64,000 nucleotides of DNA from a phage. Below, in pieces: positions 2,924 through 64,000 of the stretch. Position numbers and translations under genes: made by a program. Under the pieces are notes generated by a model. The model was not told where the DNA came from and did no database searches. It saw only the letters and a program-made list of their open reading frames with translations. Every line of letters begins with the position of its first letter. Within the stretch, counting starts at the first letter, position 1. The stretch lies in the sequence record PX880099.1, one strand, 5' to 3'.

Positions 2924-5599
2924 ATGTTTCCAATTCCAATATTTACTATTATGACCAGCACTGGTGTCGTTCCTCTGCCAGCAGGTATTGTTAAAAAAGT
3001 AATCACTTTAGATTACCCAGACAATGCTGGTAATTCTAACAGCAGTTTAGCAATTTTGCTTAATGATGGTAGATTGTTTACTCAAGGCGCAAACCTTTTT
3101 GGTGAGATTGCAGATGGAACTCGTAGTGCACGATTCAATAACTTCCACTTAGCTTCTACTGTAGTAGCGGATGTGTTTACCGCAGATCGTTGTTTTGTTA
3201 TTAAAACTAACAGTGGGGGATGGCAATATTCAGGATTGACAGCAGGATTGGTAGGATCTATAGCAGCAGGTGGTACGGACGCATGTGTAACTACTTGGAC
3301 CAGCTTTCCATCTGTAATAACAGGGACTATCTCTTTAGCCAATCTTAAAGAGGTTAAGGGAGGATATAACAACACTCTCTGGTTAATGAATAGTGGTGTT
3401 CTTTATGGATCAGGTCAAAACACAGTAGGTAGTTTAGGTGCAAGTACTACTAACGAAGTTTCTACTCCTCGTCAGATAACAAGTGCAGCAGTTGCTTTTG
3501 ATGCAGGTTACAACCAATGCTCTTATGTCAACAATGTGGGAACCTTGCGTGTTTGTGGAGCTAGTAAAGGTTTAGCAGGTAATAATAACACAACAACAGC
3601 TTTTGTCAATGCCAAGATATCCGCTACTGAAACAGTGTATGTCAAAGATTACATCAATACAGTTTCCCAGACAATAGTTGTAGGAGATACCTCCGGTGGC
3701 ACGGGTACAGTAAACTACTTATATGTTAGATCTAATACAGAAACAACCTACACTAAACTGGATACCTTTGCAGCAGGTTTCTCAACATGGAAGTTTCCAC
3801 CAAGCCGCCACTCTTTTTTCGTTGGGATCAATAATTCCTTGTGGGCTATTGGTAAGAACTACACTGCAAACTTAGGTTTGGGGTATGATTCTGCGAGCGG
3901 AGATCCACTCCAAGTGGGAAAACCAGTTAAACCTGAAGGAGTGGGTTCTTGGGATATAAACAAGCTCACAAGCGTTCATACGCTGAATATGGATGTTACT
4001 AACCAATTAGGTTATCAAGGAACCTTTTTCGTTTATAATGGAGATATGTATTATTCCGGTATTTGGAAAGATGGGAAAGCCTCGTATCTGTTCAATAGTG
4101 GTCTAAACTATAATAAATTCACACCAATAGCAAGCTCCGTGATTACGGGTGATATTCTGGCAACTGGCTTAACTACAGATTCTTTAGGAATTTGTATTGT
4201 AGGCGGAACTAAACAGTTGACACATTCTGTTAGCCCAGAAGGAGGTAAACTTTTCAATATTAAATACACTTCTTCTGCCCCTGCAAACATGACAATATCA
4301 TCTACTGGTTTAATGACTTTCCATGCAGAAGGTGGTTTTGATGCAGGTATGACAGCCTTAAACGCTGAAGGAACAACTTTATCAGATACCTCTGGAGGAT
4401 ATGCTTCAACATTGAGCGTTTACACTCCTAGCTTATCTGCAATGGATGTAGGAACAACACAAACAATGGTAGCAGAAATAACGCCAACAGGGGCAGCAAG
4501 CTTACCTGGTATGGTTGTTGAGTATTTCTCTAATGACCCTACGGTAGCAACAGTTGACCCCGTTACAGGCGTTATTACAGCAGTTGCTGATGGGGATTGT
4601 CGTATCGGTTGTAGAGCAACTTATCAAGGTGTGGTAACTGCCGAAGATAGTTCTTATCTCGCAGTGAATGCTGTGGTGATTGTGATGGACTATGATTTGA
4701 CGCAAGAAACTATTCCGGCGGATGTAAAGGTCAACAGGAGTAACCGTTATGCCAGGGCTTCTGGAGATATCCTTGTACCTACGGAGAGTTCTGCTCCCGT
4801 AGCACCTTTAGAATATGTTGGTACAACTCCACAAGGTAGACGTGTTGTAGCAGCCAACCGTACACATATCTTTATCAACAACAACTTGACAACAGCTTCC
4901 CCGTGGTTGAAGACGAACTTGACAGTCACGGCATCAACAATCAACTCTCCGGTTGGAACTACGGCTAACACTTACAAGTTAACACCTTCTACAACTTCAG
5001 GACAACATATTTTATCAGCAGTGAATACAGCTTCTGATATTACAGCAGGTAAGCACTGGGCGGCATCCGTATTCTTGAAGCCAGACGGGATCACTAAAGT
5101 GAAACTCAAATTGACTTCAGGAGATGAGATTAACGAAGGGACTTATGATCTTGTAGCTGGAACATTTACAGGTGCAGATGCAAACATAATCGATATGGGG
5201 AATGGTTGGTATCGTGTAATTCTACACAAAGTGACAGTTGCCAAACAAGCATCTATAACCTATGAGATTATAGCTTTGAATGCAAGTGGATCAGACACTT
5301 TCGCAGGAGATGGTACGGCAGGTCTTATTGCTTGGGTTCCACAGCTTGAGATGGGTGATATGACAAATCCAGTTTGGGCGGGGACACCATTTGTTTGTTC
5401 TTATGCACGAGACACTACCAGTGCTGTTACCTTCACTATTCCTAAGAATGGACATACTGGCGTGGACATTTACCACACTGATGGTACTGTGCAACGAGAG
5501 GTCTTCACTGGTACAGCTACAACTTGGATGTTGACGTTCACCGCCGCAAGTGCGGATTGGGGATCGAAGTTCATTACAGGTTTGAAATATTACGACTAA
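2924..5599 (+). CDS. large tail fibre or tail spike protein with Ig-like (Big_2-type) domain
   Basis: SD GGAGGG; 891 aa; Gly/Ser/Thr-rich repeats; motif SNDPTVATVDPVTGVITAVADG typical of bacterial Ig-like group 2 domains. Confidence 0.8.
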   Translation: MFPIPIFTIMTSTGVVPLPAGIVKKVITLDYPDNAGNSNSSLAILLNDGRLFTQGANLFGEIADGTRSARFNNFHLASTVVADVFTADRCFVIKTNSGGWQYSGLTAGLVGSIAAGGTDACVTTWTSFPSVITGTISLANLKEVKGGYNNTLWLMNSGVLYGSGQNTVGSLGASTTNEVSTPRQITSAAVAFDAGYNQCSYVNNVGTLRVCGASKGLAGNNNTTTAFVNAKISATETVYVKDYINTVSQTIVVGDTSGGTGTVNYLYVRSNTETTYTKLDTFAAGFSTWKFPPSRHSFFVGINNSLWAIGKNYTANLGLGYDSASGDPLQVGKPVKPEGVGSWDINKLTSVHTLNMDVTNQLGYQGTFFVYNGDMYYSGIWKDGKASYLFNSGLNYNKFTPIASSVITGDILATGLTTDSLGICIVGGTKQLTHSVSPEGGKLFNIKYTSSAPANMTISSTGLMTFHAEGGFDAGMTALNAEGTTLSDTSGGYASTLSVYTPSLSAMDVGTTQTMVAEITPTGAASLPGMVVEYFSNDPTVATVDPVTGVITAVADGDCRIGCRATYQGVVTAEDSSYLAVNAVVIVMDYDLTQETIPADVKVNRSNRYARASGDILVPTESSAPVAPLEYVGTTPQGRRVVAANRTHIFINNNLTTASPWLKTNLTVTASTINSPVGTTANTYKLTPSTTSGQHILSAVNTASDITAGKHWAASVFLKPDGITKVKLKLTSGDEINEGTYDLVAGTFTGADANIIDMGNGWYRVILHKVTVAKQASITYEIIALNASGSDTFAGDGTAGLIAWVPQLEMGDMTNPVWAGTPFVCSYARDTTSAVTFTIPKNGHTGVDIYHTDGTVQREVFTGTATTWMLTFTAASADWGSKFITGLKYYD

Positions 5600-40214: not shown

Positions 40215-40649
40215 TCATTTCTTCTTTCCTTTCTTTAATTTGTTGTGACCTTTACCCTTATAAAGCTTGTGATTACGAGCAGATGGGTTATTTTGGTTCT
40301 CCAGTCGGCTAACAGGTGTATTCCAAAGATTTCCTGCTACAAAAGATGCTGCCACAAGTTCTTCCAGGTATACAAAATCCAAAGCAGGTATCTTTGTTTC
40401 CCTCATCTTGCGTTCTACATTAGACAACACGCCTTCTTCCTTACTGTCTTCTTTTTCAATTACAGACCAACCCTCTTCCTGCCAAGCTTCCCCTCTGAAC
40501 CAAGTTTCCATGTTATAACCTTGTTCGTCGAGAATAACACCATCTCGCATCTCAAACCATTCACCACCGCAAAAATAACTGTGCTCAACACGTCTACCTT
40601 CCTTCATTGCTTCTTTAGCTTCGGTCCAAGTCAGTTTGATGTTTTGCAT
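40215..40649 (-). CDS. hypothetical protein with basic C-terminus; first gene of the - strand block
   Basis: 144 aa; ends KGKGHNKLKKGKKK; upstream region holds divergent promoters. Confidence 0.5.
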   Translation of the reverse strand: MQNIKLTWTEAKEAMKEGRRVEHSYFCGGEWFEMRDGVILDEQGYNMETWFRGEAWQEEGWSVIEKEDSKEEGVLSNVERKMRETKIPALDFVYLEELVAASFVAGNLWNTPVSRLENQNNPSARNHKLYKGKGHNKLKKGKKK

Positions 40650-46451: not shown

Positions 46452-46990
46452 GAATAACTGATGAATATGTATTCTTCTTTTCACATAAAGATGTGTTTAG
46501 TAATTGGTATATTGCACCCTTTACAGAAACTGAACCAGGTTACAATGAGACTTTCTGTTGTGTTGAGCAATATATGATGTGGCGTAAGGCTTTGCTGTTC
46601 AAGGATCATGCGATTGCAGCAGCTATCCTTGATCACTCAACTATACGTGACAACGAGAGGAAACAAGCATACTACAAACGTATGGGTCGAGCGGTATCTG
46701 GTTTTAATAATGATATGTGGGAAGAGAACCGTGAGCGTATTGTTATGCGAGGCTTATGCTTGAAATATGTACAGAATCCAGATTTGTATGCAGACTTACA
46801 CCTTTACCAATACAAAACGTTTGTTGAAGCAAATCCTTACGATAAGGTTTACGGTATTGGAATGGGAATGTATGAACCAGGGGTGCTAAACCCTGCTACC
46901 TGGAAAGGGCAGAATCTTTTAGGCAAATATCATAATAAACTGATCGAAATACTTTTCCCAGACAAAATACCGCAAAGACGATATTTGTGA
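46448..46990 (+). CDS. NADAR-family (YbiA-like, DUF1768) protein
   Basis: FFFSHKDVFSNWY..FCCVEQYMMWRKA..RKQAYYKRMGR..YGIGMG resembles the NADAR/YbiA domain. Confidence 0.6.
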   Translation: MRITDEYVFFFSHKDVFSNWYIAPFTETEPGYNETFCCVEQYMMWRKALLFKDHAIAAAILDHSTIRDNERKQAYYKRMGRAVSGFNNDMWEENRERIVMRGLCLKYVQNPDLYADLHLYQYKTFVEANPYDKVYGIGMGMYEPGVLNPATWKGQNLLGKYHNKLIEILFPDKIPQRRYL

Positions 46991-47042
46991 TATTTTAACT
47001 TTTTTCATTTTTAGAACAAAGGTGTCACTTTGTAGCACAGAA

Positions 47043-47078
47043 ATAAGGCTCCTACAGCACCGTAGAGAGCCTGTTATT
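47043..47078 (+). terminator. rho-independent terminator
   Basis: GGCTCCTAC-agcacc-GTAGAGAGCC hairpin followed by TGTTATTTTG. Confidence 0.55.
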
Positions 47079-47234
47079 TTGTCCTATACAAACCCTTGTC
47101 TTTTTCAGTTTGCATCACTAGGATTCGATCTGAGTGGGTTCCTGAAGGTTTACCAATAAGATTAAAGGTTATATCAAATTCCCACTATCTTTTATCTCAA
47201 AAATCCCTCAAATTATTTAAACTTTTTAAGAATT

Positions 47235-47420
47235 TACAAAAGTGAAAGTTGAAAACCAAAATTTAAAGTTTAGGAAAATTATCTTAAAATGTTAGATACA
47301 AAACAAAACTCAAAAGTCAAGGAAAATTTTAAAAATTTTGCGCGCCCACAGTATTTAAAGTTTTTTTGCTTTTACAAAAATGAAAGTACAAAAGCAAAAT
47401 TTAAAGTTTACAAAAATTTT
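47235..47420. repeat. two copies of a ~46-bp AT-rich direct repeat
   Basis: TACAAAAgtGAAAGTtgaAAAccAAAATTTAAAGTTTAggAAAATT at 47235-47280 repeated with few changes at 47374-47420. Confidence 0.6.
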
Positions 47421-47461
47421 TATGCAGGTGAAAATGAGAAGAGTTCTCATATGGAAATGCA

Positions 47462-47480
47462 AATGATAATGATTCGCATT
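47462..47480. promoter_or_regulatory. Fur-box-like palindrome
   Basis: TGATAATgATTcgCA versus 7-1-7 consensus TGATAATnATTATCA; flanked by palindromic AAATGC..GCATTT. Confidence 0.3.
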
Positions 47481-47519
47481 TAAGTTTATAAATGAGATTG
47501 ATTCTTATTTAATAAGGTA

Positions 47520-47538
47520 AATGACAATCATTCTCATT
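47520..47538. promoter_or_regulatory. Fur-box-like palindrome
   Basis: TGAcAATcATTcTCA, two mismatches to 7-1-7 consensus. Confidence 0.3.
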
Positions 47539-47798
47539 TAGAGAATGACGCGCAGGGGCGGTGTTTGTCTCGCGCTCCCGTGTCCACTCGCCATGTAATA
47601 AGAATAACAGATCCAGCCAGGAAAGCAAGCGATTATTTTATCTTTACATTTCTTTACAAATATATAGCACCCAGCCTACCGGCGATCAACCTTCCAACCA
47701 GTGCCCCCTGGTATGTTAGCCCCGCCTTTACGCCGTGGGGTGGCGCTTCCTCTTCTGTATGTAAAACAGTATAAGCCCGATCCCTGGGCTTGTCAAGA

Positions 47799-55971: not shown

Positions 55972-56020
55972 TAGTAGAAAACGAGATCCCGCAAACCATT
56001 ATTATTGTCGAGCGTACAGC

Positions 56021-56407
56021 ATGAAAACAGAAATCATTAACGAAATCATCAACGGCTATAAAGAAGCCTTTATTTTTGCTGAATCAGCAAGGGATCATGA
56101 AGGTAATTTTATAGATGACATGACTGATTATGATTTTTCAGATCAAGCCCATCAACGGATCGCCCAGGATGTAACAGCCTTTATTAATGCTAATCTTGCC
56201 GCTATCTCTGAGGCAATGAGCGACGGCGCAACAGCCAACCAGATCGGGAATGATTTACATTTTACCCGTAACGGTCACGGCGTAGGATTTTGGGATCGCC
56301 CTGAAATATACACCACTAACACGGCGAACCGCCTAACAAATGCAGCTAAGTTTATGCCGAACGTGTCGGCTTACATTGGTGAAGATAATTTGATTTATAT
56401 TGAATAA
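56021..56407 (+). CDS. hypothetical protein
   Basis: Start set at MKTEIINEI; weak SD, possibly translationally coupled; 128 aa. Confidence 0.45.
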   Translation: MKTEIINEIINGYKEAFIFAESARDHEGNFIDDMTDYDFSDQAHQRIAQDVTAFINANLAAISEAMSDGATANQIGNDLHFTRNGHGVGFWDRPEIYTTNTANRLTNAAKFMPNVSAYIGEDNLIYIE

Positions 56408-56413
56408 AAAGTA

Positions 56414-56470
56414 TTGACACAGATCGCCAGTGTGCTAATATTTACCACGTAGGGCGGCAATGGTGCCGCC
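56414..56470 (+). promoter_or_regulatory. promoter plus 5' stem-loop cassette 21
   Basis: TTGACA-16 bp-TAATAT-TTACCAC then GGCGGCA-atgg-TGCCGCC perfect hairpin. Confidence 0.65.
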
Positions 56471-56488
56471 GATAATGAGGAAAATAAA

Positions 56489-56788
56489 ATGGAAACTATC
56501 GCTATTGTTACCGTAGAAAAACTGGTTGTTGGTGATGTGTTCGCGTTAATGGTGCCTAACAGCAGCAAACTGGGCGCTTATGAAGTGATGGACCATAAAA
56601 ATGAATCATTTGGCGACGGTTGCACAATGGCGGTAAAATCCTTAAAGGATGGAATCATCCGCCAGGCTAACTGGCACAAAGGGAATCAAGTCGGTTTAAT
56701 ATCAGCTAATTTCTTGCCAGAAGAGCAAACGTTAGACCAACTATCAGGCGGTAAGACGTTAGCCGAACTACTGGAAACAGCGATCTAA
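56489..56788 (+). CDS. hypothetical protein (cassette gene)
   Basis: 99 aa; SD GAGGAAAATAAA before ATG. Confidence 0.55.
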   Translation: METIAIVTVEKLVVGDVFALMVPNSSKLGAYEVMDHKNESFGDGCTMAVKSLKDGIIRQANWHKGNQVGLISANFLPEEQTLDQLSGGKTLAELLETAI

Positions 56789-56802
56789 TCAACAAAGGGG
56801 CG
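56787..56802 (+). other. promoter-less stem-loop GGGGCG-gcaa-CGCCCC
   Basis: Perfect hairpin overlapping the stop at 56788; near-identical copy at 57079-57094. Confidence 0.45.
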
Positions 56803-56832
56803 GCAACGCCCCACATCAGAAAGGAAAAGATT

Positions 56833-57069
56833 ATGAGTATTGCAACAGTATTAAACGCCGTTAAAACCGCTGAATCATCCGGCTTGCATGTTGAGCTTAT
56901 AGATCAACCAGGTGGCGATCTCCTTGTCCAGGTTTACCCGCCGAAAGTAGGGGATGATTATTATTGGGCTTATTCTGATACGTTCGAACAAGTAGACACG
57001 AAAGCGATCACGGCTTTTATTTTAAAAGCTATTGAAGAAAATAACTTTCATCATAACATCAATCAATAA
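56833..57069 (+). CDS. hypothetical small acidic protein
   Basis: 78 aa; SD AAAGGAAAAGA before ATG. Confidence 0.55.
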   Translation: MSIATVLNAVKTAESSGLHVELIDQPGGDLLVQVYPPKVGDDYYWAYSDTFEQVDTKAITAFILKAIEENNFHHNINQ

Positions 57070-57078
57070 ACCATAAGC

Positions 57079-57094
57079 GGGGCGGTAACGCCCC
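57079..57094 (+). other. promoter-less stem-loop GGGGCG-gtaa-CGCCCC
   Basis: Second copy of the 56787 hairpin, immediately after the stop at 57069. Confidence 0.45.
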
Positions 57095-57123
57095 ATTAAA
57101 CGCAATAGGAAGAGGATAGACGC

Positions 57124-57414
57124 ATGAAAAACATGATCGCAGTAGTTGCCCTAGTTGTTGGTATTAACGCGCCTGTACTGGCTAATGAGTTGTCAGAATC
57201 CATCACGCTAACCGATATCAACGCAATAAACCGGATCGGCGTTAATTATCGCCTATGCCTTGCCGCTAAAACTTTCCAGGACGGCACGACAGAATACCAC
57301 GGATTCGAGGGTATCCGCTGCGGTGAGCTTGCACGCGACCTTAAAGAAGATCCAGACCTTGAGGCCATACCGATGACCGTAAACGGTAAAGCTTACGTAA
57401 ACCGCCAACAATGA
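57124..57414 (+). CDS. secreted small protein (signal peptide)
   Basis: MKNMIAVVALVVGINAPVLA signal peptide; SD AGGAAGAGGA before ATG. Confidence 0.55.
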   Translation: MKNMIAVVALVVGINAPVLANELSESITLTDINAINRIGVNYRLCLAAKTFQDGTTEYHGFEGIRCGELARDLKEDPDLEAIPMTVNGKAYVNRQQ

Positions 57415-57545
57415 GAAAGGTAATCATCACAATGGGGATCGTAGTAGCAACGCTGGCGCTTATCCCCTTCATGGTTGAACATGTGCTGATCAGTGTTGTC
57501 CTTGTAGTCAGTGACCTATTGGAAACGGTTGGCACCTGGTTTTAA
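57411..57545 (+). CDS. possible 44-aa membrane peptide
   Basis: ATGA overlap with upstream stop; two hydrophobic stretches. Confidence 0.3.
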   Translation: MRKVIITMGIVVATLALIPFMVEHVLISVVLVVSDLLETVGTWF

Positions 57546-57550
57546 GATAA

Positions 57551-57580
57551 TAAATAGGGCTTGCAATAGTCCTATTTTTT
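57551..57580 (+). terminator. terminator-like hairpin with T6 run
   Basis: TAGGGC-ttgcaata-GTCCTA imperfect stem followed by TTTTTTG. Confidence 0.4.
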
Positions 57581-57620
57581 GTTATACTTATTGAACGGGC
57601 GGCACCTGGGAGCAGGTGAA
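57561..57620 (+). promoter_or_regulatory. promoter followed by CACCTG-ggag-CAGGTG palindrome (variant element)
   Basis: TTGCAA-16 bp-TATACT; then GGGCGG and a perfect CACCTG/CAGGTG inverted repeat; about 100 nt ORF-free leader follows. Confidence 0.4.
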
Positions 57621-57719
57621 GATAATCACCGGAAGATCCCGCTATATATCGATAGCTAATACCTATCAAACAACAAAACATCAAAGAGATAAACTATCAA
57701 ATCTTTACAATCCTACCTA

Positions 57720-57778
57720 TTGACACCGGATCACGCTTACATTATTATTTATCACGTAGGGCGGGAATGTTTCCCGCC
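57720..57778 (+). promoter_or_regulatory. promoter plus 5' stem-loop cassette 22
   Basis: TTGACA, AT-rich -10 region, TTATCAC, then GGCGGGAA-tgt-TTCCCGCC perfect hairpin. Confidence 0.6.
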
Positions 57779-57796
57779 TGATTTAGGAGTCATATC

Positions 57797-58030
57797 ATGA
57801 TCGAACAAATTAAAAGCACTAAACCAAATGTTAACGGTAATGTTTCTCACTTTATCGGGGATAATGAAAGAGGTACACCGTACGCCGCCGTAACCGTTCA
57901 ACCGAACGGGGATTATTGGTTTACCGTGTACGGATCTTACTCTTTTGGACGTTCGGCACATGATAAGATCTTGCAAGTGGTTAAGCCTACTGGGAAGAAT
58001 ATCACAGCAGAAAAATTTTATAAAAAATAG
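57797..58030 (+). CDS. hypothetical small protein (cassette gene)
   Basis: 77 aa; SD AGGAG before ATG. Confidence 0.55.
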   Translation: MIEQIKSTKPNVNGNVSHFIGDNERGTPYAAVTVQPNGDYWFTVYGSYSFGRSAHDKILQVVKPTGKNITAEKFYKK

Positions 58031-58032
58031 CT

Positions 58033-58091
58033 TGCTTTATATACCCTGTTAACTTATAGTTATTGCGTAGGGCGAGCAATACAGCAAGCCC
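58033..58091 (+). promoter_or_regulatory. promoter plus degenerate 5' stem-loop cassette 23
   Basis: TTGCTT-16 bp-TTATAG/TATAGT then GGGCGAGCAATACAGCAAGCCC imperfect inverted repeat. Confidence 0.45.
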
Positions 58092-58108
58092 ACAAAGAGG
58101 AAAATAAA

Positions 58109-58477
58109 ATGAGCAAATCAGCAATTAAAGCACTTGAAAAAGCACAAGAAGTGATCGCAACGTCAACCACTGGCGCAAAGGTTAATCTCGTTTGTTATCT
58201 GACAGATGAAACTATCCGTAAAAATTGGCGTAATGCTGATTTACTGGCTTGCTTATTGATTAATAGTGTCGCTAATGCTTTCCAGTGTGAAACAGCCGAG
58301 AGCCTGGAGGAAAACTTGTTTGATAATATGGATCAAGCCATTGAAACCTATATACAATCAAACCTGGATAGCTGGAACAGTAAAACATGGCCCGACAATT
58401 TACGCGATACAACTGATCAACTGATCCGCCTTGCCCTGATGGTTGAACGCGATAACGTTTACAACAGCACAAAGTAA
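58109..58477 (+). CDS. hypothetical protein (cassette gene)
   Basis: 122 aa; SD AAGAGGAAAA before ATG. Confidence 0.55.
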   Translation: MSKSAIKALEKAQEVIATSTTGAKVNLVCYLTDETIRKNWRNADLLACLLINSVANAFQCETAESLEENLFDNMDQAIETYIQSNLDSWNSKTWPDNLRDTTDQLIRLALMVERDNVYNSTK

Positions 58478-58486
58478 GATTATACA

Positions 58487-58510
58487 AGGGCGCACTAAGC
58501 GCCCTTTAAC
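58487..58510 (+). terminator. terminator-like hairpin (same module as 53414 and 59050)
   Basis: AGGGCGC-actaa-GCGCCCT followed by TTTAAC, weak T tail. Confidence 0.45.
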
Positions 58511-58536
58511 GTAAAGAAATGTAAATAATGCGCTAT

Positions 58537-58571
58537 CCCCTATTGACAGGGGATCGGCGTTATATTATATT
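58537..58571 (+). promoter_or_regulatory. promoter with palindrome around the -35 (variant cassette 24, no 5' hairpin)
   Basis: TCCCCT-aTTGACA-GGGGA inverted repeat enclosing -35 TTGACA; 17 bp; TATATT. Confidence 0.5.
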
Positions 58572-58616
58572 TAACTTACTGGCAGCAAACAACGAAACGA
58601 AACAAAGGACAACATC

Positions 58617-59036
58617 ATGAACATTAAATCAAATAATCCAGCTTACTCCTTCGATAACGCTTTTTGTCACGGTAGCGCCGCCAAAGGCTTCGAAATCGAT
58701 GGTAAATTGGTTATCGTGAACGTTGACGGGGAAGAGGTTGCAGTGTATCCGGTAAACGATGTTAAAAGCCGTTTACAATGCCGCATGGATGTTACCGCAT
58801 ATCAGCTTGATCCGGTCCGTGTAGTTGCCTTGGTGTTAGAGGAAGAGATCAAAGCAATGCATCACAGTAATAAGTTTATTGGTGACGCGCAGGATAATAT
58901 GAACGTTTGCCGCCATAAAGTTAATGAAGCATTGAAAGAATGCGGTTTTAAGGATCTGATGATTAAACGTGATGAAAAATTCCGCTTTCGTAATGACCTG
59001 GCAAACCGGATCTACTCAATCTATGAAGCGTTATAA
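58617..59036 (+). CDS. hypothetical protein (last gene of array)
   Basis: 139 aa; SD AAAGGA before ATG; followed by strong terminator. Confidence 0.55.
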   Translation: MNIKSNNPAYSFDNAFCHGSAAKGFEIDGKLVIVNVDGEEVAVYPVNDVKSRLQCRMDVTAYQLDPVRVVALVLEEEIKAMHHSNKFIGDAQDNMNVCRHKVNEALKECGFKDLMIKRDEKFRFRNDLANRIYSIYEAL

Positions 59037-59049
59037 TTGACAACAAAAC

Positions 59050-59078
59050 AAGGGCGCACCAAGCGCCCTTTCTTTTTG
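59050..59078 (+). terminator. rho-independent terminator (module AAGGGCGCAYCAAGCGCCCTTT)
   Basis: AGGGCGC-accaa-GCGCCCT hairpin followed by TTCTTTTT. Confidence 0.75.
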
Positions 59079-60039
59079 CCCGAACAATATTGATAGCTTT
59101 CGCCTATGAAAAACCGACACAGAACAAAACTGAATAAATCGCGGTATCGAGCTAATCAACCAGCAAACGAATAACCATACCTCCCAGGGTTACAGGCTGT
59201 TAGAGAGCCATTTAGAGCGGTTAAAATCGATCAACAACCAACAACAAACCATCAAAAACACCCTTTTACCTCCTTTCTAGTGCAATGATAACCATTATCA
59301 TCTACCCATGATTATCTATGCAATATAAGCGCATAATTATAATGTTGATAATAGTTCGCAACAACTAACCAACAAACAACATAAAACAATAAGCAAACTA
59401 ATCATAATCAAAGGAATAATAGCAAGATGATTGATAACGACAAACAATCAAACCATGATGAATACTAAGCAAGATAACGATAACACGACAAAACAACCAA
59501 CTAACGAACAATAACAAACGAAACCATTAAAATAATAACTATTAGCAAAATAGTGCATGAATGAAATCATTACAAAACGAATCATTCATAGAGTCATCAT
59601 TAGCACGCTATGCCGGACACATAGCGAGCTAATAATAAGCCAACTACACCCCAACAATCATAACCATCGGTGATGGTTATTTCTTGTTACTGCGTAGCTT
59701 GCAATAATTGCAAGCGTAATGACGCTTACACTTATTGCGCTGGCTTATTATTAGCATTATATGTAATTACCAAGATCATAACATTAGCGCAATAACAATA
59801 ATCATTGTGGTAATTACGTAAGGAAACAATTAGCATGGCAATAATTATGGGGGCAATGGGAGGATGATTATCATCATTCCGATACATTGCACACTATGCA
59901 CATAATAGAATAAAAAGCAATAATTTTGGGGGCGAAATGTTACCGCCACAGGCGGGAATGTTGAGCAAGTTCTCTTAAACGTAAATAAAATCAGAATAAT
60001 CTTGATTTATTTTAGTTTTTATGTTAATAAACGTTTAAA

Positions 60040-60054
60040 TAATAATCATTCTCA
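60040..60054. promoter_or_regulatory. Fur-box-like palindrome
   Basis: TaATAATcATTcTCA, two mismatches to 7-1-7 consensus TGATAATnATTATCA. Confidence 0.3.
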
Positions 60055-60215
60055 TATAAATAATAGTCTGCTTGTCATGAGCGGGATTAGTTGACAATGT
60101 TCCGTCATATGATGAGGTTGCCAAGCCATTGATAAATAAGTGTTTGTGTGATTTATAATCAGGTGGCCCACCTTGTCGCTATGTTGGCATGAGCCTTGCA
60201 TAAGTCATTGAATAC

Positions 60216-60236
60216 GAATGATAATTATTCTCATTC
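60216..60236. promoter_or_regulatory. Fur-box-like palindrome (best match in window)
   Basis: TGATAATtATTcTCA, one mismatch to consensus; embedded in larger palindrome CGAATGA..TCATTCG. Confidence 0.35.
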
Positions 60237-60576
60237 GCATGATATTTGGGAATTGTCGCTGCGTGGACCTGACGGCCCGAAAATTCGCGTTAAGCACTTC
60301 TTACGTATGCACCATGATTTTTGCCATATCATATTGATTCTATTAGATATTCTTGCCATGATTGCCATGAAACAGGGTGTCCCGAAATAATCTCTCCCCG
60401 TAGATATTTTGGGTTACTTTTTATACAAGAGTGGGGTGTCAAAAATAATCGGTATATATGGGATAATTGATAGGAATCCCCTATGATAATTCGATTGTAA
60501 TTCCCTAAGATTGATCGTATGATGTTGGTGATTAATGATTGCCATGAAAGATGGCTAACGATGAGAGGAGATTATC

Positions 60577-60951
60577 ATGCAAGAGAGTAAAAATGTTCCG
60601 TTGAGCAGTGCAACATTGCTTCGCTTCTATAAAGCATGGATTGCCAACTATCCTGCAATGAATCGCACAACGAGTGGCTTATGTGGTTGTCTGGTAGATT
60701 ATGTAGATGATTTTGTTGGTGAGACAACTAGAGAAGAAGATAGAAGATGGCGTGATCATTTGTTGGACCGTTTGAAATATGAAATGAGGAAACAATTTAC
60801 ATGTGCAGGGTTGGACTACAATCTTCCGTTCAATGCAGATTGCATGGATTACCTTTCAGAGTGTATAAACTTGGCGTGTCATACCAACACGTTACGTCTT
60901 CAATGGGTGAAAGACAGAATTGAAGATGCAAATAATGCTTGCATTGAATAA
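60577..60951 (+). CDS. hypothetical protein
   Basis: 124 aa; SD GAGAGGAGA before ATG; first gene after the ORF-free region. Confidence 0.55.
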   Translation: MQESKNVPLSSATLLRFYKAWIANYPAMNRTTSGLCGCLVDYVDDFVGETTREEDRRWRDHLLDRLKYEMRKQFTCAGLDYNLPFNADCMDYLSECINLACHTNTLRLQWVKDRIEDANNACIE

Positions 60952-61000
60952 AGATGTTTGTATAATGGATGACATAACAGATAGCCAATGAGGAGATGAA

Positions 61001-61210
61001 ATGAAGAATTTGAAAACTGTCACAATGTTCTTGACTAATCCTACACGTGTGCAAGCACTGGCTAAAGCCAGCCGTGTAGCTGTAGAATTCCAAAACTTTA
61101 AGCCGTCCGTTGTGACAGGCAGTGAAACGTGTGTTATCGATTTCATTAACGAATACTTCCGAGGGAATCCGGTTGGTCGTTACTTTATTAAGGGTCTGAA
61201 GGATGCATAG
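61001..61210 (+). CDS. hypothetical small protein
   Basis: 69 aa; SD GAGGAGA before ATG. Confidence 0.5.
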   Translation: MKNLKTVTMFLTNPTRVQALAKASRVAVEFQNFKPSVVTGSETCVIDFINEYFRGNPVGRYFIKGLKDA

Positions 61211-61433
61211 CATGAAACGCATGAAAATTCGTATTGAGAATGATGGTGGTTATAAAGGACTTACCCGTGCAAAATTCCCACTTGTGTTGGAAGCTACGGT
61301 GGAATACAGTGGGCTTGCTCATGTGCGATTCTCGAAGATGATGGAAGTGCAGGAATGGTTTTGGGACGAGATAGATGCACGAGAAGGGGAAGATTATGTT
61401 TTCTTTCCTCACGAATATGAAATTGTTTATTAA
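61203..61433 (+). CDS. hypothetical small protein
   Basis: 76 aa; 8-nt overlap with upstream gene. Confidence 0.5.
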   Translation: MHSMKRMKIRIENDGGYKGLTRAKFPLVLEATVEYSGLAHVRFSKMMEVQEWFWDEIDAREGEDYVFFPHEYEIVY

Positions 61434-61436
61434 AGG

Positions 61437-61685
61437 TTGTATGCAATGATCACACCACAACAAAATGAAGCAGCAATGGATCTTCTTGATAGTTTGTATT
61501 TCGATAATTGGTACTCTGAATGTGAATGGATGAATATGCAAACTCTGAAAGAGAAGACAAAAGCGTTGATTACAGTAGATCAATTTCTTGCAGAGACGGA
61601 AAGAATGAATTATGATATGGCATCTCGCGCACGACGCGTTTCCATTTTCAATAAAATGTTAGCATTATGGGGAGGTAGAAAATGA
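61437..61685 (+). CDS. hypothetical small protein
   Basis: 82 aa; start may instead be the internal ATG (MITPQQ). Confidence 0.45.
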   Translation: MYAMITPQQNEAAMDLLDSLYFDNWYSECEWMNMQTLKEKTKALITVDQFLAETERMNYDMASRARRVSIFNKMLALWGGRK

Positions 61686-62143
61686 GACAATTCACTATAC
61701 TGGCAGCTTATGTGCAATGTGTTCACGATTATGTTAGTGCTCATACAGGTTTGCTGGAAGTTACCAGTAAAATTGAAGGTAATATGGGTACTGTCTGTGT
61801 GCAACATACTTTATCCAATGTGCCGTTTAAAGTGTTCACTGTTGTAGCTGCCGATTACAATCGTGTAGATGTGCGTTTCTTGGATCATAATTTTCGTAAC
61901 GCACTAGATAATATCGAAGATTATCTTCCCGTGAAACCTTTGTCATTTCCACCAAGTCGTGCAAATAATGTAGTGACAAATCTTAATGAAAGAAATGTGG
62001 CTATGCACAAAAAAGTCCGTCAACTGAAAATGCTGATGGAAATGCAAGAAGAGATTGAAAAAGAACTGAAAGAAGATTTTGGTATGCTTCCAAAAGACGC
62101 TTTGAAATGGTATGATGAACTAGGAGGAGAAAGTTATGAATAA
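61682..62143 (+). CDS. hypothetical protein
   Basis: 153 aa; ATGA overlap; SD GGAGG before ATG. Confidence 0.5.
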   Translation: MRQFTILAAYVQCVHDYVSAHTGLLEVTSKIEGNMGTVCVQHTLSNVPFKVFTVVAADYNRVDVRFLDHNFRNALDNIEDYLPVKPLSFPPSRANNVVTNLNERNVAMHKKVRQLKMLMEMQEEIEKELKEDFGMLPKDALKWYDELGGESYE

Positions 62144-62330
62144 AGGAACTACTGTATATTTAGTGACTAAGAACACCCCAGGTTGGAATCAGTGCACAAC
62201 GACTCCATATAAGATTTGTGCAACACTGGAACTAGCACAACGTGCAGAAGCGGAAGTTGATGCTATGCGATACAGCTACGGGGAGATCATTCCTTTCACT
62301 CTGGAACAAGAAGGAGCACATAGTGTTTAA
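62136..62330 (+). CDS. hypothetical small protein
   Basis: 64 aa; SD GGAGGAGAAAG before ATG. Confidence 0.5.
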   Translation: MNKGTTVYLVTKNTPGWNQCTTTPYKICATLELAQRAEAEVDAMRYSYGEIIPFTLEQEGAHSV

Positions 62331-62778
62331 GGTAGGGTTTACTTATAAATTCAAAAGCGTTGCTGACCAAGGAGATATGGCAACACATGACAAAGCAAAT
62401 ATTGCTGTTTGCCAAGCGATTGGAAACGAAGTTTTCAAAGTTATGAATACAGATGATAAGTATGGTCATGTTCTTGAGTTTTATATCAATGGTACCCTCT
62501 ATACAGCAGGTGTTACCCCAGGGTTTAATTCGTATACTTATTTGATTGATAACGAAGAATTTAAATATTTTGAAGAAGTAAAGGAGGAAACAATGGGTAA
62601 AGCAGAACCACAATGGCATGTTGTGATCGTAGGATCAGAGTGTGTAGATGTTTGTTCTAGTTTTGAAAAAGCTTCTGAAGTCGCTACAAAAGCTAAGAAG
62701 GACTATCCGTCGAAGACGGTTGAGATTTACGCTCGTGTTGCAGTAGCAAACGCCACAATCACTATTGATAAGGAGTAA
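62323..62778 (+). CDS. hypothetical protein, paralog family member 1
   Basis: Start set at GTG after SD AAGGAG, giving FKVGFTYKFKS parallel to paralogs; shared C-terminal ..YP.KTVEIY.. Confidence 0.5.
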   Translation: MFKVGFTYKFKSVADQGDMATHDKANIAVCQAIGNEVFKVMNTDDKYGHVLEFYINGTLYTAGVTPGFNSYTYLIDNEEFKYFEEVKEETMGKAEPQWHVVIVGSECVDVCSSFEKASEVATKAKKDYPSKTVEIYARVAVANATITIDKE

Positions 62779-62783
62779 AGCCA

Positions 62784-63242
62784 ATGTTCAAAGAAGGTCA
62801 TGTCTACCGTTTCCAGGATGAGGATTATATGCGACTATATTCTACCTTTGATAACAGTATTGCGGCTATCATTGGAGAGAATTTTTTCGAGGTGTTGAGC
62901 ACTGATGCAAATGGTAATATCTTGTCAATGGTTGTAATAGGTATGAGAGATGGTATTATCACTGCTGGTGATGGGGATCGTTACATAATCAATTCTGCTC
63001 ATATAGATTATTTTGTTGACGGTGGTGTTCGTGGTGGTCGTGGAAAACCCCAAGAAGAACCTGTTGATACGACAAAAGAAGAGTGGTATGTTGTAATGAC
63101 TGATGACACCTGTATTTCTGGATTTGAAAGTTATGAAGAAGCTTTGAAAGAAGCAGCAGAGCATAAAATGGCTAATCCTACAGAAGAGGTTGAAGTTTAT
63201 AAACGTCTGGTTGTTGCTACCATCGGCGTATCTTTTGTTTAA
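62784..63242 (+). CDS. hypothetical protein, paralog family member 2
   Basis: N-terminal MFKEGHVYRF and C-terminal PTEEVEVYKRLV parallel the neighbours; SD AAGGAG. Confidence 0.55.
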   Translation: MFKEGHVYRFQDEDYMRLYSTFDNSIAAIIGENFFEVLSTDANGNILSMVVIGMRDGIITAGDGDRYIINSAHIDYFVDGGVRGGRGKPQEEPVDTTKEEWYVVMTDDTCISGFESYEEALKEAAEHKMANPTEEVEVYKRLVVATIGVSFV

Positions 63243-63254
63243 AAGGGGAATGTT

Positions 63255-64000
63255 ATGTTTAAAGTAGGTTTTGTTTATAATTTCAAATCGGAAGATACCA
63301 AAAAGAATTTTGGTAAAGCTAGTATTCGTAACGCTTTCTTTGTAGGTTGCATTCAAGATAGCAAGTTTAAAGTTTTAGATGTTGATTTTCTAGGTTCTGT
63401 GTCAAAGGTGAAGGTATTAGACACAAATAAGATCATCGAAGGTAGTTCTGGGCTTTTTCCTGAAGGCTATAAGCTTGTAAGTTGTATAGATTATAGTCGT
63501 TTTGAAGAACATCCTCCTGAAGATTATGAGGATTCTCCTACAGGAGGTTGTGTCTTTGTAGAAGGTGGTGTCTATAAGTTTGCAAGTGAACAAGATCGTA
63601 AGCTTTTCGCCAATTATATTGACGGCGGACAAACGACAAACAATGTAAACCGAAAAATTTCCGATCTTATTGGAGATGATCCTTTCGTGATCACAAAGAT
63701 GGTTGGACAAGATGTAACAGCAATCCGTAGGCTTGTATGTAATACAAATCATGTAGCAGGTGAAGGTTGGTTCAAAGAAGCTTGTGCACTGCTAATCAAA
63801 AGCGATAACCCTTACTTTAAAAATATTAAAAATGCTGTTGAGCCTAAACAAGAGGAACCCGCAGCGAATTTTAAACACTATGCTATTGTTAAAGGTATGA
63901 ATGTCCAACTGGTGTCACATTCTTACGAAGAGATCGCCACAGAAGCAAAAAAGATGAAGGAAGAATACCCAATTTCTACTGTTGAGATCTATGAGCGTAT
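63255..64000 (+). CDS. hypothetical protein, paralog family member 3 (3' end outside window)
   Basis: ATG after SD AAAGGGGAA; N-terminal MFKVGFVYNFKS matches paralogs; frame open to window end. Confidence 0.5.
   Translation, partial: MFKVGFVYNFKSEDTKKNFGKASIRNAFFVGCIQDSKFKVLDVDFLGSVSKVKVLDTNKIIEGSSGLFPEGYKLVSCIDYSRFEEHPPEDYEDSPTGGCVFVEGGVYKFASEQDRKLFANYIDGGQTTNNVNRKISDLIGDDPFVITKMVGQDVTAIRRLVCNTNHVAGEGWFKEACALLIKSDNPYFKNIKNAVEPKQEEPAANFKHYAIVKGMNVQLVSHSYEEIATEAKKMKEEYPISTVEIYER

Follow-up and report, generated by a model that had tools for sequence, protein, structure and literature searches.

A probable genome-end control region with a G-depleted tract and a conserved fold in a phAPEC8-like phage

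The phage DNA of record PX880099.1 raises the question of what some 1.5 kb between two genes may do when neither strand seems to code for a protein. We analyzed a window of 64,000 nucleotides from this record, to which all coordinates refer, and in which positions 59080–60576 had been singled out by an earlier, sequence-only reading for the absence of a convincing open reading frame (ORF) and for a strong A+C strand bias; a structured non-coding RNA, an origin of replication, a packaging site and a late regulatory region had been named as candidate functions. The longest ORF in this stretch has 64 amino acids and a TTG start, all others reach at most 51 amino acids, most related records carry no annotation across it, and the gap is not an annotation failure. 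The flanking genes encode small proteins without assigned function. The window represents Phapecoctavirus DNA, and the 1.65 kb around the region are 93–98% identical to about 70 phage records of this genus, which comprises phAPEC8-like myoviruses of about 150 kb within the subfamily Stephanstirmvirinae. A captured host sequence was ruled out, since the ORF-free region has no match among 5,426 E. coli genomes. The answer that we favor is that the region is probably the genome-end (concatemer-junction) control region of a phAPEC8-like myovirus.

Within its right half, positions 59964–60292 almost certainly constitute a direct terminal repeat of 329 bp, at whose boundaries the virion DNA would begin and end. 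Exact repeats are present at both record ends of Schickermooser (329 bp), Mt1B1_P17 (328 bp) and phi92 (343 bp; accessions MK373788, MT496970 and FR775895). The Schickermooser repeat starts with AGCAAGTTCTCTTAAACG and ends with GAAAATTCGCGTTA, with TTG preceding and AGCAC following it, and the boundary motifs of Mt1B1_P17 are the same once its reverse complement is taken. The window matches the Schickermooser repeat base for base at both boundaries, TGTTG^AGCAAG at 59963/59964 and CGCGTTA^AGCAC at 60292/60293 (carets mark the boundary). The repeat of phi92, a phage of the sister genus Justusliebigvirus, is homologous, and its record has direct terminal repeats of 343 bp annotated at left and right in the homologous non-coding region. 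At least ten related records begin or end exactly at the base matching position 59964. TGTTG^AGC and CGCGTTA^AGC are conserved 321–420 bp apart in all lineages collected (more than ten, five of them metagenomic), and GTTR^AGCA in direct orientation is common to both boundaries; the repeat length inferred from them differs between lineages over this range. Published accounts report a repeat of 328 bp for Schickermooser (PMC6563267) and of 342 bp for BME3, whose packaging was determined with PhageTerm (PMC12210895), and members of the Stephanstirmvirinae end in direct terminal repeats (PMC12695924).

Since the repeat is present once and lies inside the window, the source record has it collapsed to one copy with the junction internal; for annotators, the genome start of such phages corresponds to window position 59964. 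Thus, of the functions proposed earlier, a packaging site with genome termini holds for the right half of the region, by the record ends of relatives and their boundaries. By the same comparison, 59080–59963 would be the last unique DNA of the right end, with the compositionally biased tract just inside it, and the assignment of the repeat makes 60293–60576 the leader of the left end.

The right-end segment is very probably a conserved and functionally constrained module. Its order is fixed across the subfamily: a terminator, a palindrome block, two Fur-like boxes, a G-poor tract, a 177-nt element, a variable spacer and, mostly, a hairpin 5–9 nt before the cut site. Position and conservation of these elements would fit packaging or replication signals of the T7 right-end type. 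The comparison rests on 18 distinct homologues of 59594–59770 gathered from phage records, IMG/VR and metagenomes; a search for relatives through a neighboring protein gave only three loci (viral contigs), and DNA-pattern scans yielded more.

Immediately before the repeat, 8 nt upstream of its left boundary, lies the GC-rich hairpin CCGCC-ACA-GGCGG, which had been recognized before and spans 59943–59955 rather than 59943–59957. Every lineage examined outside Justusliebigvirus has a hairpin 5–9 nt before TGTTG^AGC with a GC-rich stem of 5–7 bp and a loop of 3–4 nt, and the stem sequences are unrelated (ATCGC/GCGAT, AGCGC/GCGCT, ATACCGC/GCGGTAT, GCCCAC/GTGGGC, AACCCT/AGGGTT and AGCCTT/AAGGCT are examples). 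Shape is kept while sequence is replaced, which suggests that the hairpin is part of the cut-site signal. As a separate observation, two lineages (Citrobacter phage Tr1 and locus L029) have two TGTTGAGC motifs 67 bp apart with an own hairpin before each, which looks like a duplicated left cut site.

Further inside the right end, the strand asymmetry that had been described as unusual at 59100–59700 proved to be the strongest A+C bias of the 64-kb window (z about 5): the top 300-nt stretch (71.7% A+C, z = +5.1) and the top 600-nt stretch (66%, z = +4.6) both fall here. The base composition of 59100–59700 is A 42.8, C 22.3, G 13.1 and T 21.8%, and that of the core at 59220–59560 is A 48, C 21, G 9.7 and T 21%, compared with window means of A 30.8, C 20.3, G 19.2 and T 29.7%. 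Two parts of the earlier description need correction. The plus strand had been called almost devoid of G; the depletion is real, but G is only about halved, and G is similarly scarce near 7.6 kb, in a stretch that codes on the minus strand. Likewise, the excess of A stands, whereas C, at 20–22%, is not enriched. The core of the plus-strand tract is at 59220–59595, the bias being detectable over 59100–59700; the GC content of the tract is 29–33%. Owing to the scarcity of G, plus-strand 59251–59550 has the weakest predicted fold among 425 overlapping 300-nt windows (−22.7 vs. −63.2 ± 11.0 kcal/mol), and its minus strand is less extreme (−47.3 kcal/mol).

Comparison with related phages shows that this G depletion persists across genera while the sequence diverges, BLAST similarity between genera being lost in the middle of the tract. 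In every lineage the plus strand has 4–13% G overall (4–8% over 400 nt in phi92, 4–6% in Klebsiella phage phi1_175008, 5–10% in Tr1 and 5–12% in metagenomic lineages). A, T and C vary between lineages, with C reaching 29% (25–29% in some metagenomic ones), and since low G persists all the same, the property held in common is the absence of G from the plus strand and not richness in A+C. The tract is always placed between paired Fur-box-like palindromes and the 177-nt element, directly upstream of the latter in every lineage examined. Within the genus it is 91–99.5% identical and free of indels, which carries no weight because the neighboring genes are equally conserved; a higher conservation of the tract than of its flanks was not seen, the whole of 58000–59700 being 90–97% identical to the phiWec181 lineage. 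A degenerate coding sequence or an array of trinucleotide-binding sites was rejected, as none of five lineages has a period-3 signal in the tract, and so was phased A-tract bending, as a 10–11 bp (helical, 10.5-bp) periodicity is absent. An Hfq sponge of A-R-N repeats was set aside by eye only, its motif not being common to the phi92-type tracts.

The composition may be rationalized in two mirror-image ways, as a loading zone of Rho for rightward read-through or as the Rho-proof tail of a leftward RNA. According to the first, which appears improbable to us, the tract is the rut (Rho utilization) loading zone of a plus-strand, Rho-dependent fail-safe terminator that stops read-through past the intrinsic terminator at 59050–59070 before it enters the junction. 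Such a zone would agree with the two- to five-fold excess of C over G along 300–500 nt in every lineage (about two-fold here and up to five-fold in relatives), with the C content of the metagenomic lineages just mentioned, and with the presence of an unstructured stretch of at least 80 nt with more C than G in what is the least structured plus-strand RNA of the window. The tract is also untranslated, directly behind the last operon and followed by possible pause hairpins, and T7 too has a polymerase pause or termination signal at its concatemer junction. However, the excess base in this phage is A and not C, the upstream intrinsic terminator is strong, and this reading accounts neither for the palindrome module nor for the fact that the adjacent fold favors the minus strand.

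That fold belongs to a conserved structured element of 177 nt at 59594–59770, assigned to the minus strand, which is the most conserved part of the region between genera. In every lineage examined, TGTTG^AGC follows 246–339 nt downstream of a palindrome within it. RNAalifold predicts a long-range closing helix of 15 bp (59628–59642 with 59750–59764) that encloses internal hairpins, and a separate, adjacent 8-bp hairpin at 59606–59626. By pair counting in the minus-strand alignment of the 18 homologues, 98.6% of the cells are paired and 14 of the 48 pairs have changed on both sides, compared with 8.6 ± 1.1 in shuffled alignments (none of 500 reaches 14) and 2–4 in slid controls. The covariation spans four or five helices. 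An alternative central fold, the minimum free energy (MFE) structure of the single sequence, has 19 of 61 pairs changed on both sides, and the center of the element may switch between two folds or be imperfectly resolved. In MFE z-scores, the minus strand reaches −8.75 and the plus strand −7.05. In each of the 18 homologues the minus strand has the more stable predicted fold (−74 to −84 kcal/mol, compared with −56 to −70 kcal/mol for the plus strand), with a gap of 12–25 and a mean of 17.8 kcal/mol, because several helix positions are conserved as G.U (G.T) on the minus strand and read C.A on the plus strand; across the window as a whole, neither strand is favored to a similar degree. Compensatory changes in a long-range helix are not explained by a protein-binding palindrome and argue for intramolecular pairing of a single strand.

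A covariance model of the element (R1) was run on the window, where it has a single strong match, and on the related loci, with one match in each; outside the subfamily it gives only weak, strand-inconsistent matches, in phage Av-05 (17 bits) and in one metagenomic lineage. Rfam 15, which includes the phi29 packaging RNA, 6S RNA and small RNAs, gave no match at E ≤ 1 in 56000–64000 and none at gathering score across the window; a tRNA or a tmRNA was not found in the region either. A hairpin with a T-rich tail at 59660–59690 was considered as an intrinsic terminator; the hairpin covaries, but the T-run is not conserved and is missing in several lineages. The earlier proposal of a structured non-coding RNA is thus partly supported: a covarying element exists, but it adjoins the A+C-rich tract, itself the least structured 300 nt, instead of lying in it, folds as the minus strand and belongs to no Rfam family.

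The second rationale for the composition starts from this strand preference. It supposes a terminus-associated non-coding RNA transcribed leftward on the minus strand, with a structured 5' domain (59770–59594) and a C-poor, U/G-rich tail (59594 to about 59100), that would act in trans or co-transcriptionally, e.g., as a packaging, priming or regulatory RNA. In all lineages C makes up 4–13% of the minus strand of the tract, a depletion that would make an untranslated RNA a poor substrate of Rho, the superior minus-strand fold with G.U pairs conserved inside its helices is that expected of such an RNA, and the terminator at 59050–59070 also scores on the minus strand in this window. Nevertheless, we regard it as unlikely. 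No leftward promoter was found in 59770–60300, where the best site matches 9 of 12 positions and lacks a conserved counterpart in phi92; neither phi92 nor Av-05 keeps the T-run that follows the terminator on the minus strand; no Rfam family matches; and the strand asymmetry fits single-stranded DNA of the minus strand equally well, because G.T is the least destabilizing DNA mismatch. An extension of the same idea is likewise unlikely: the element and the C-depleted tract would form one Rho-immune leftward RNA throughout the Stephanstirmvirinae that serves end processing, as a primer of repeat duplication or a packaging RNA, and is controlled through the palindromes by Fur or a phage mimic of it. 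If true, a leftward terminus RNA would be a new class of phage RNA tied to genomes with short terminal repeats, and its control by Fur would link the iron status of the host to the maturation of the phage genome.

The palindromes themselves occur beyond chance. Two Fur-like palindromes had been noted in the region, and three sites match the 7-1-7 consensus TGATAATnATTATCA at 12 or more of 14 positions (59286, 13/14; 60040, 12/14; 60219, 13/14), compared with 0.03 expected in shuffled sequences; they include the two best Fur-like sites of the whole window. The site at 59286–59300 forms a two-box module (59281–59362) with a second box at 59346–59360 (11/14), 60 bp apart and arranged around a third palindrome, TATGC..GCATA at 59317–59335, which reads TTATGCA..TGCATAA. 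Two further boxes lie inside the terminal repeat (60040–60054 and 60219–60233). The module is kept in ten lineages including Av-05, a member of the Vequintavirinae, with the spacing of 58–60 bp held in phi92 and Av-05, and phi92 has four Fur-like sites, one of them a perfect match inside its repeat. The site positions are therefore conserved across two subfamilies. In Av-05 (locus L016, 2928–4844), terminator, conserved block and two-box module likewise open a 1.9-kb ORF-free region, which continues with a short A/C-rich stretch, a hairpin-dense center and a G/T-rich stretch in which A+C falls to 26%. This suggests an architecture older than the divergence of the two subfamilies. The palindromes may be bound by the host Fur protein or, equally possibly, by a phage protein.

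Operators in this position invite the idea of a plus-strand non-coding RNA that starts between the Fur-like boxes near 59344, is repressed by Fur and ends in the structured block. A conserved TGCATAAT lies between palindromes whose position would suit operators, in all lineages the second box is directly followed by the start of the G-poor tract, and the hairpin with the T-rich tail at 59660–59690 could provide an end. We consider this RNA highly improbable, as its putative promoter lacks a −35 element and the −10-like hexamer belongs to the third palindrome, of which TGCATAAT is one half, and is degenerate in Av-05 and Tr1, the T-run at the end is missing in several lineages, and the fold prefers the opposite strand. 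A sigma-70 promoter inside the tract was also rejected, with 12 sites found vs. 10.5 in shuffles and none with at least 10 of 12 matches to the left of the repeat.

Another palindrome, TGATAG-N6-CCTAT(CA), marks a conserved plus-strand block at 59089–59170 that also contains ATCGCGGTATCGAGCTAATCAA and is kept in the Stephanstirmvirinae and Av-05. The window has five matches vs. 0.94 expected, among them 59091–59107 in this block, 60468–60484 and 57650–57666. The motif flanks both genome ends, being located just after the right-end terminator and in the left-end leader, and does so in phi92 as well; it is probably the operator of a DNA-binding protein.

An origin of replication, the other function that had been proposed, was not borne out. 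In that reading, unwinding would take place in the AT-rich, asymmetric tract, and an initiator would recognize the repeated palindromes and the ATTAGC motifs. The low GC content of the tract speaks for it, as do the five copies of ATTAGC in one orientation and the fact that GC and AT skew locally change sign near 59700–59950, and T7 has a secondary origin-promoter at its right end. However, the cumulative GC skew tracks gene orientation, with its global minimum at 40622, where the orientation switches, and only a small local dip here; for rV5 the cumulative skew is likewise reported to follow gene orientation. DnaA boxes are at chance level (89 found vs. 90 expected), by which a DnaA-dependent origin is rejected. 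The trinucleotide GTC, the T7-type primase site, is absent from 59071–59592 and occurs six times inside the repeat; an avoidance of primase sites that would leave the repeat single-stranded fails for this reason. A better candidate lies in a second ORF-poor region at 46990–47700, which is more than 99% conserved in related phages. Besides shorter AAACTTTAAAT-type repeats, it has two copies of a 72-nt direct repeat (47209 and 47347, 82% identical), a stretch poorer in C than any other in the window (47211–47510) and four palindromes AAATGAnAAnnATTCTCATTT at an exact spacing of 29 bp (47432–47540), whose motif is that of the Fur-like boxes. The iteron-like region at 47.0–47.5 kb is a candidate origin or a major regulatory region, and an origin at 59080–60576 is the weakest reading and a very improbable one.

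Returning to the concatemer junction, we propose a mechanism by analogy to T7. One repeat per junction would be nicked at both boundaries and copied before the two ends form, the hairpin and GTTR^AGCA marking the nick site. The right-end segment would act in cis, as a single strand, in the recognition and processing of this junction. Its structured element would be a minus-strand fold-back or priming structure, in the form of displaced DNA or of RNA transcribed leftward. The G-depleted tract would be a structure-free flank that holds one strand open for protein loading, and the palindromes would be sites for an architectural or regulatory factor, either Fur of the host or a protein of the phage. 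For rV5, a phage of the sister subfamily, the reported proteins include Pol A and a primase-helicase of the T7 type. We advance this specific role, junction processing and packaging in cis after the manner of the T7 right end, tentatively, as a plausible one.

Several points weigh against it. Sites of the pac or cos kind are not known to be depleted in G, and the constraint on the tract would reside in the persistence of its composition across genera and not in its sequence. The preference of the fold for the minus strand would fit an RNA as well as minus-strand single-stranded DNA, and a consensus scan around the tract and the element gave no convincing promoter in either direction. The phi92 group (Justusliebigvirus) has no hairpin beside the cut site, so the hairpin is not universally required. 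The Fur-like palindromes recur in the second non-coding region at 47.4 kb, which makes a general regulator likelier than a packaging factor. Finally, termini, transcripts and packaging signals of this phage are all deduced from its relatives and from sequence.

The remaining features frame the region. On its left, a rightward array of small genes, the last of which ends at 59036, is closed by a bidirectional intrinsic-terminator hairpin (59050–59070) with an 8-bp stem, six GC pairs and a plus-strand T-run; hairpin and T-run are conserved in the Stephanstirmvirinae and Av-05. The hypervariable spacer with ATTAGC motifs (59771–59942) is 47–55% identical to phAPEC8, where 59800–59900 is replaced, and 50–60% identical to the phiWec181 lineage; the five ATTAGC copies extend over 59541–59829, vs. 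0.4 expected. Against the phiWec181-type lineage we also observed a mosaic boundary at about 59720–59750 / 59770–59940, beyond which the terminal repeat and the left-end leader are only 50–75% identical, in contrast to the closely similar 58000–59700. The two genome ends appear to have been exchanged as separate modules. A similarity search matched about 140 phage records to the region. Among the database matches, records labeled Campylobacter phage B15, A145 and others (host Campylobacter jejuni) are 72–94% identical to the region, and single Pseudomonas- and Acinetobacter-labeled phage records match it likewise; these are probably mislabeled or contaminant genomes.

To the right of the repeat, the plus-strand leader of the left end (60293–60576) contains, besides the ribosome-binding site of the first gene, two tandem promoter-like sites and a 24-bp tandem repeat. 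TTGCCA-18-AATAAT at 60362–60391 is the best sigma-70-like match of the region, and a second site lies at 60420–60449; both are candidate promoters by consensus match. The repeat GGGTGTC..AAATAATC that the sequence-only reading had pointed out is indeed carried by this pair (near 60375 and 60435), and the direct repeat ATGATTGCCATGAAA is present twice, at 60358 and, for the second copy, at 60535 and not 60537. The 24-bp tandem repeat (60462–60511) holds the TGATAG-N6-CCTAT palindrome. In its sequence, this part to the right of the terminal repeat looks like early rather than late promoters and operators. The first gene of the left end (60577–60951, plus strand) encodes a small protein of 124 amino acids whose function is unassigned. 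In phAPEC8 and many relatives its place is taken by two tandem paralogous genes, gp18 and gp19 (compared at 4581–5283 of locus L001); the single gene of the window has the first 11 codons of gp18 and the remainder of gp19. Unequal recombination at a common ATTCCGTTGAGCAGT appears to have deleted 315 bp, which accounts for length differences between the window and its relatives.

What gives the region its interest is that the recognition, nicking and duplication of short terminal repeats at junctions are understood, incompletely, only for T7 and T3, and that this subfamily includes many therapeutic coliphage candidates. Beside the junction it has a conserved set of cis elements: a cut-site motif at both boundaries, a hairpin kept in shape, a strand-specific fold of 177 nt and a tract from which G is kept out. 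The conserved, near-perfect Fur boxes, in turn, raise the question of whether this virulent phage, at whose genome ends they lie, makes use of the host iron status or of Fur. A Fur box has been described in temperate lambda-like phages, and the literature searched has no discussion of the use of host iron status or Fur by a virulent phage through Fur boxes at its ends. Nor do the searched papers mention the hairpin, the G-poor tract, the covarying fold or the Fur-like palindromes, whereas the terminal repeat is a known kind of element.

Among known systems, the E. coli Fur box (19 bp, or TGATAATnATTATCA in its 7-1-7 form) resembles the phage sites, which match it at 12–14 of 14 positions. The phage sites differ in being located at the genome ends of a virulent phage instead of at iron-uptake promoters, in their consensus, AAATGA(G/T)AAT-n-ATTCTCATTT, and in their arrays with spacings of 29 bp and 58–60 bp. 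For the 177-nt element, known from its predicted fold, the closest parallels are the complementary-strand origin of G4, the single-strand initiation (ssi) sites of plasmids and the packaging RNA of phi29, all of them folded single-stranded elements of 100–180 nt that act in cis or near ends in priming or packaging; they differ in architecture and have no sequence or Rfam match (E ≤ 1) to it. The iss (injection stop signal) region of T5 is dense in direct and inverted repeats. The iss site is reported to lie in a large region of the left end (bioRxiv 10.1101/866236). A large ORF-free stretch near a genome end is what it has in common with the present region. T5 differs by its 10-kb repeats, its two-step injection and the lack of homology, and DnaA boxes are not enriched in the present region.

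The closest functional likeness is to T7. The right end of T7 contains pacB and the promoter-origin phiOR, and in both phages the terminal repeat is short and the junction is flanked on its right-end side by non-coding cis elements. The two ends have no sequence similarity, there is no promoter of a phage RNA polymerase here, the T7 elements are much shorter, and neither a G-depleted tract of 300–500 nt nor a multi-helix fold of 177 nt is a known feature of the T7 right end. At the left end of T7, a short repeat is followed by promoters and then by small inward-reading genes, an order that the present leader resembles. T7 concatemers have one repeat per junction, and this junction carries a polymerase pause signal. 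Nicking at the junction and synthesis through the repeat, which duplicate it, belong to the models for T7, and an intermediate that contains a hairpin has been seen (PMC4281155). The nearest relation is with the other repeats of the Stephanstirmvirinae (phi92, Schickermooser and BME3), which are the same element: the boundaries are identical to those of Schickermooser and homologous to those of phi92, and the length of 329 bp is that of the genus. The difference is that the window holds a single collapsed copy, and that the papers give the existence and length of the repeats and not the flanking elements. A short terminal repeat with its junction, an element of a known kind, thus accounts for the region as a whole, and the compositional feature of the region is both true and unusual.

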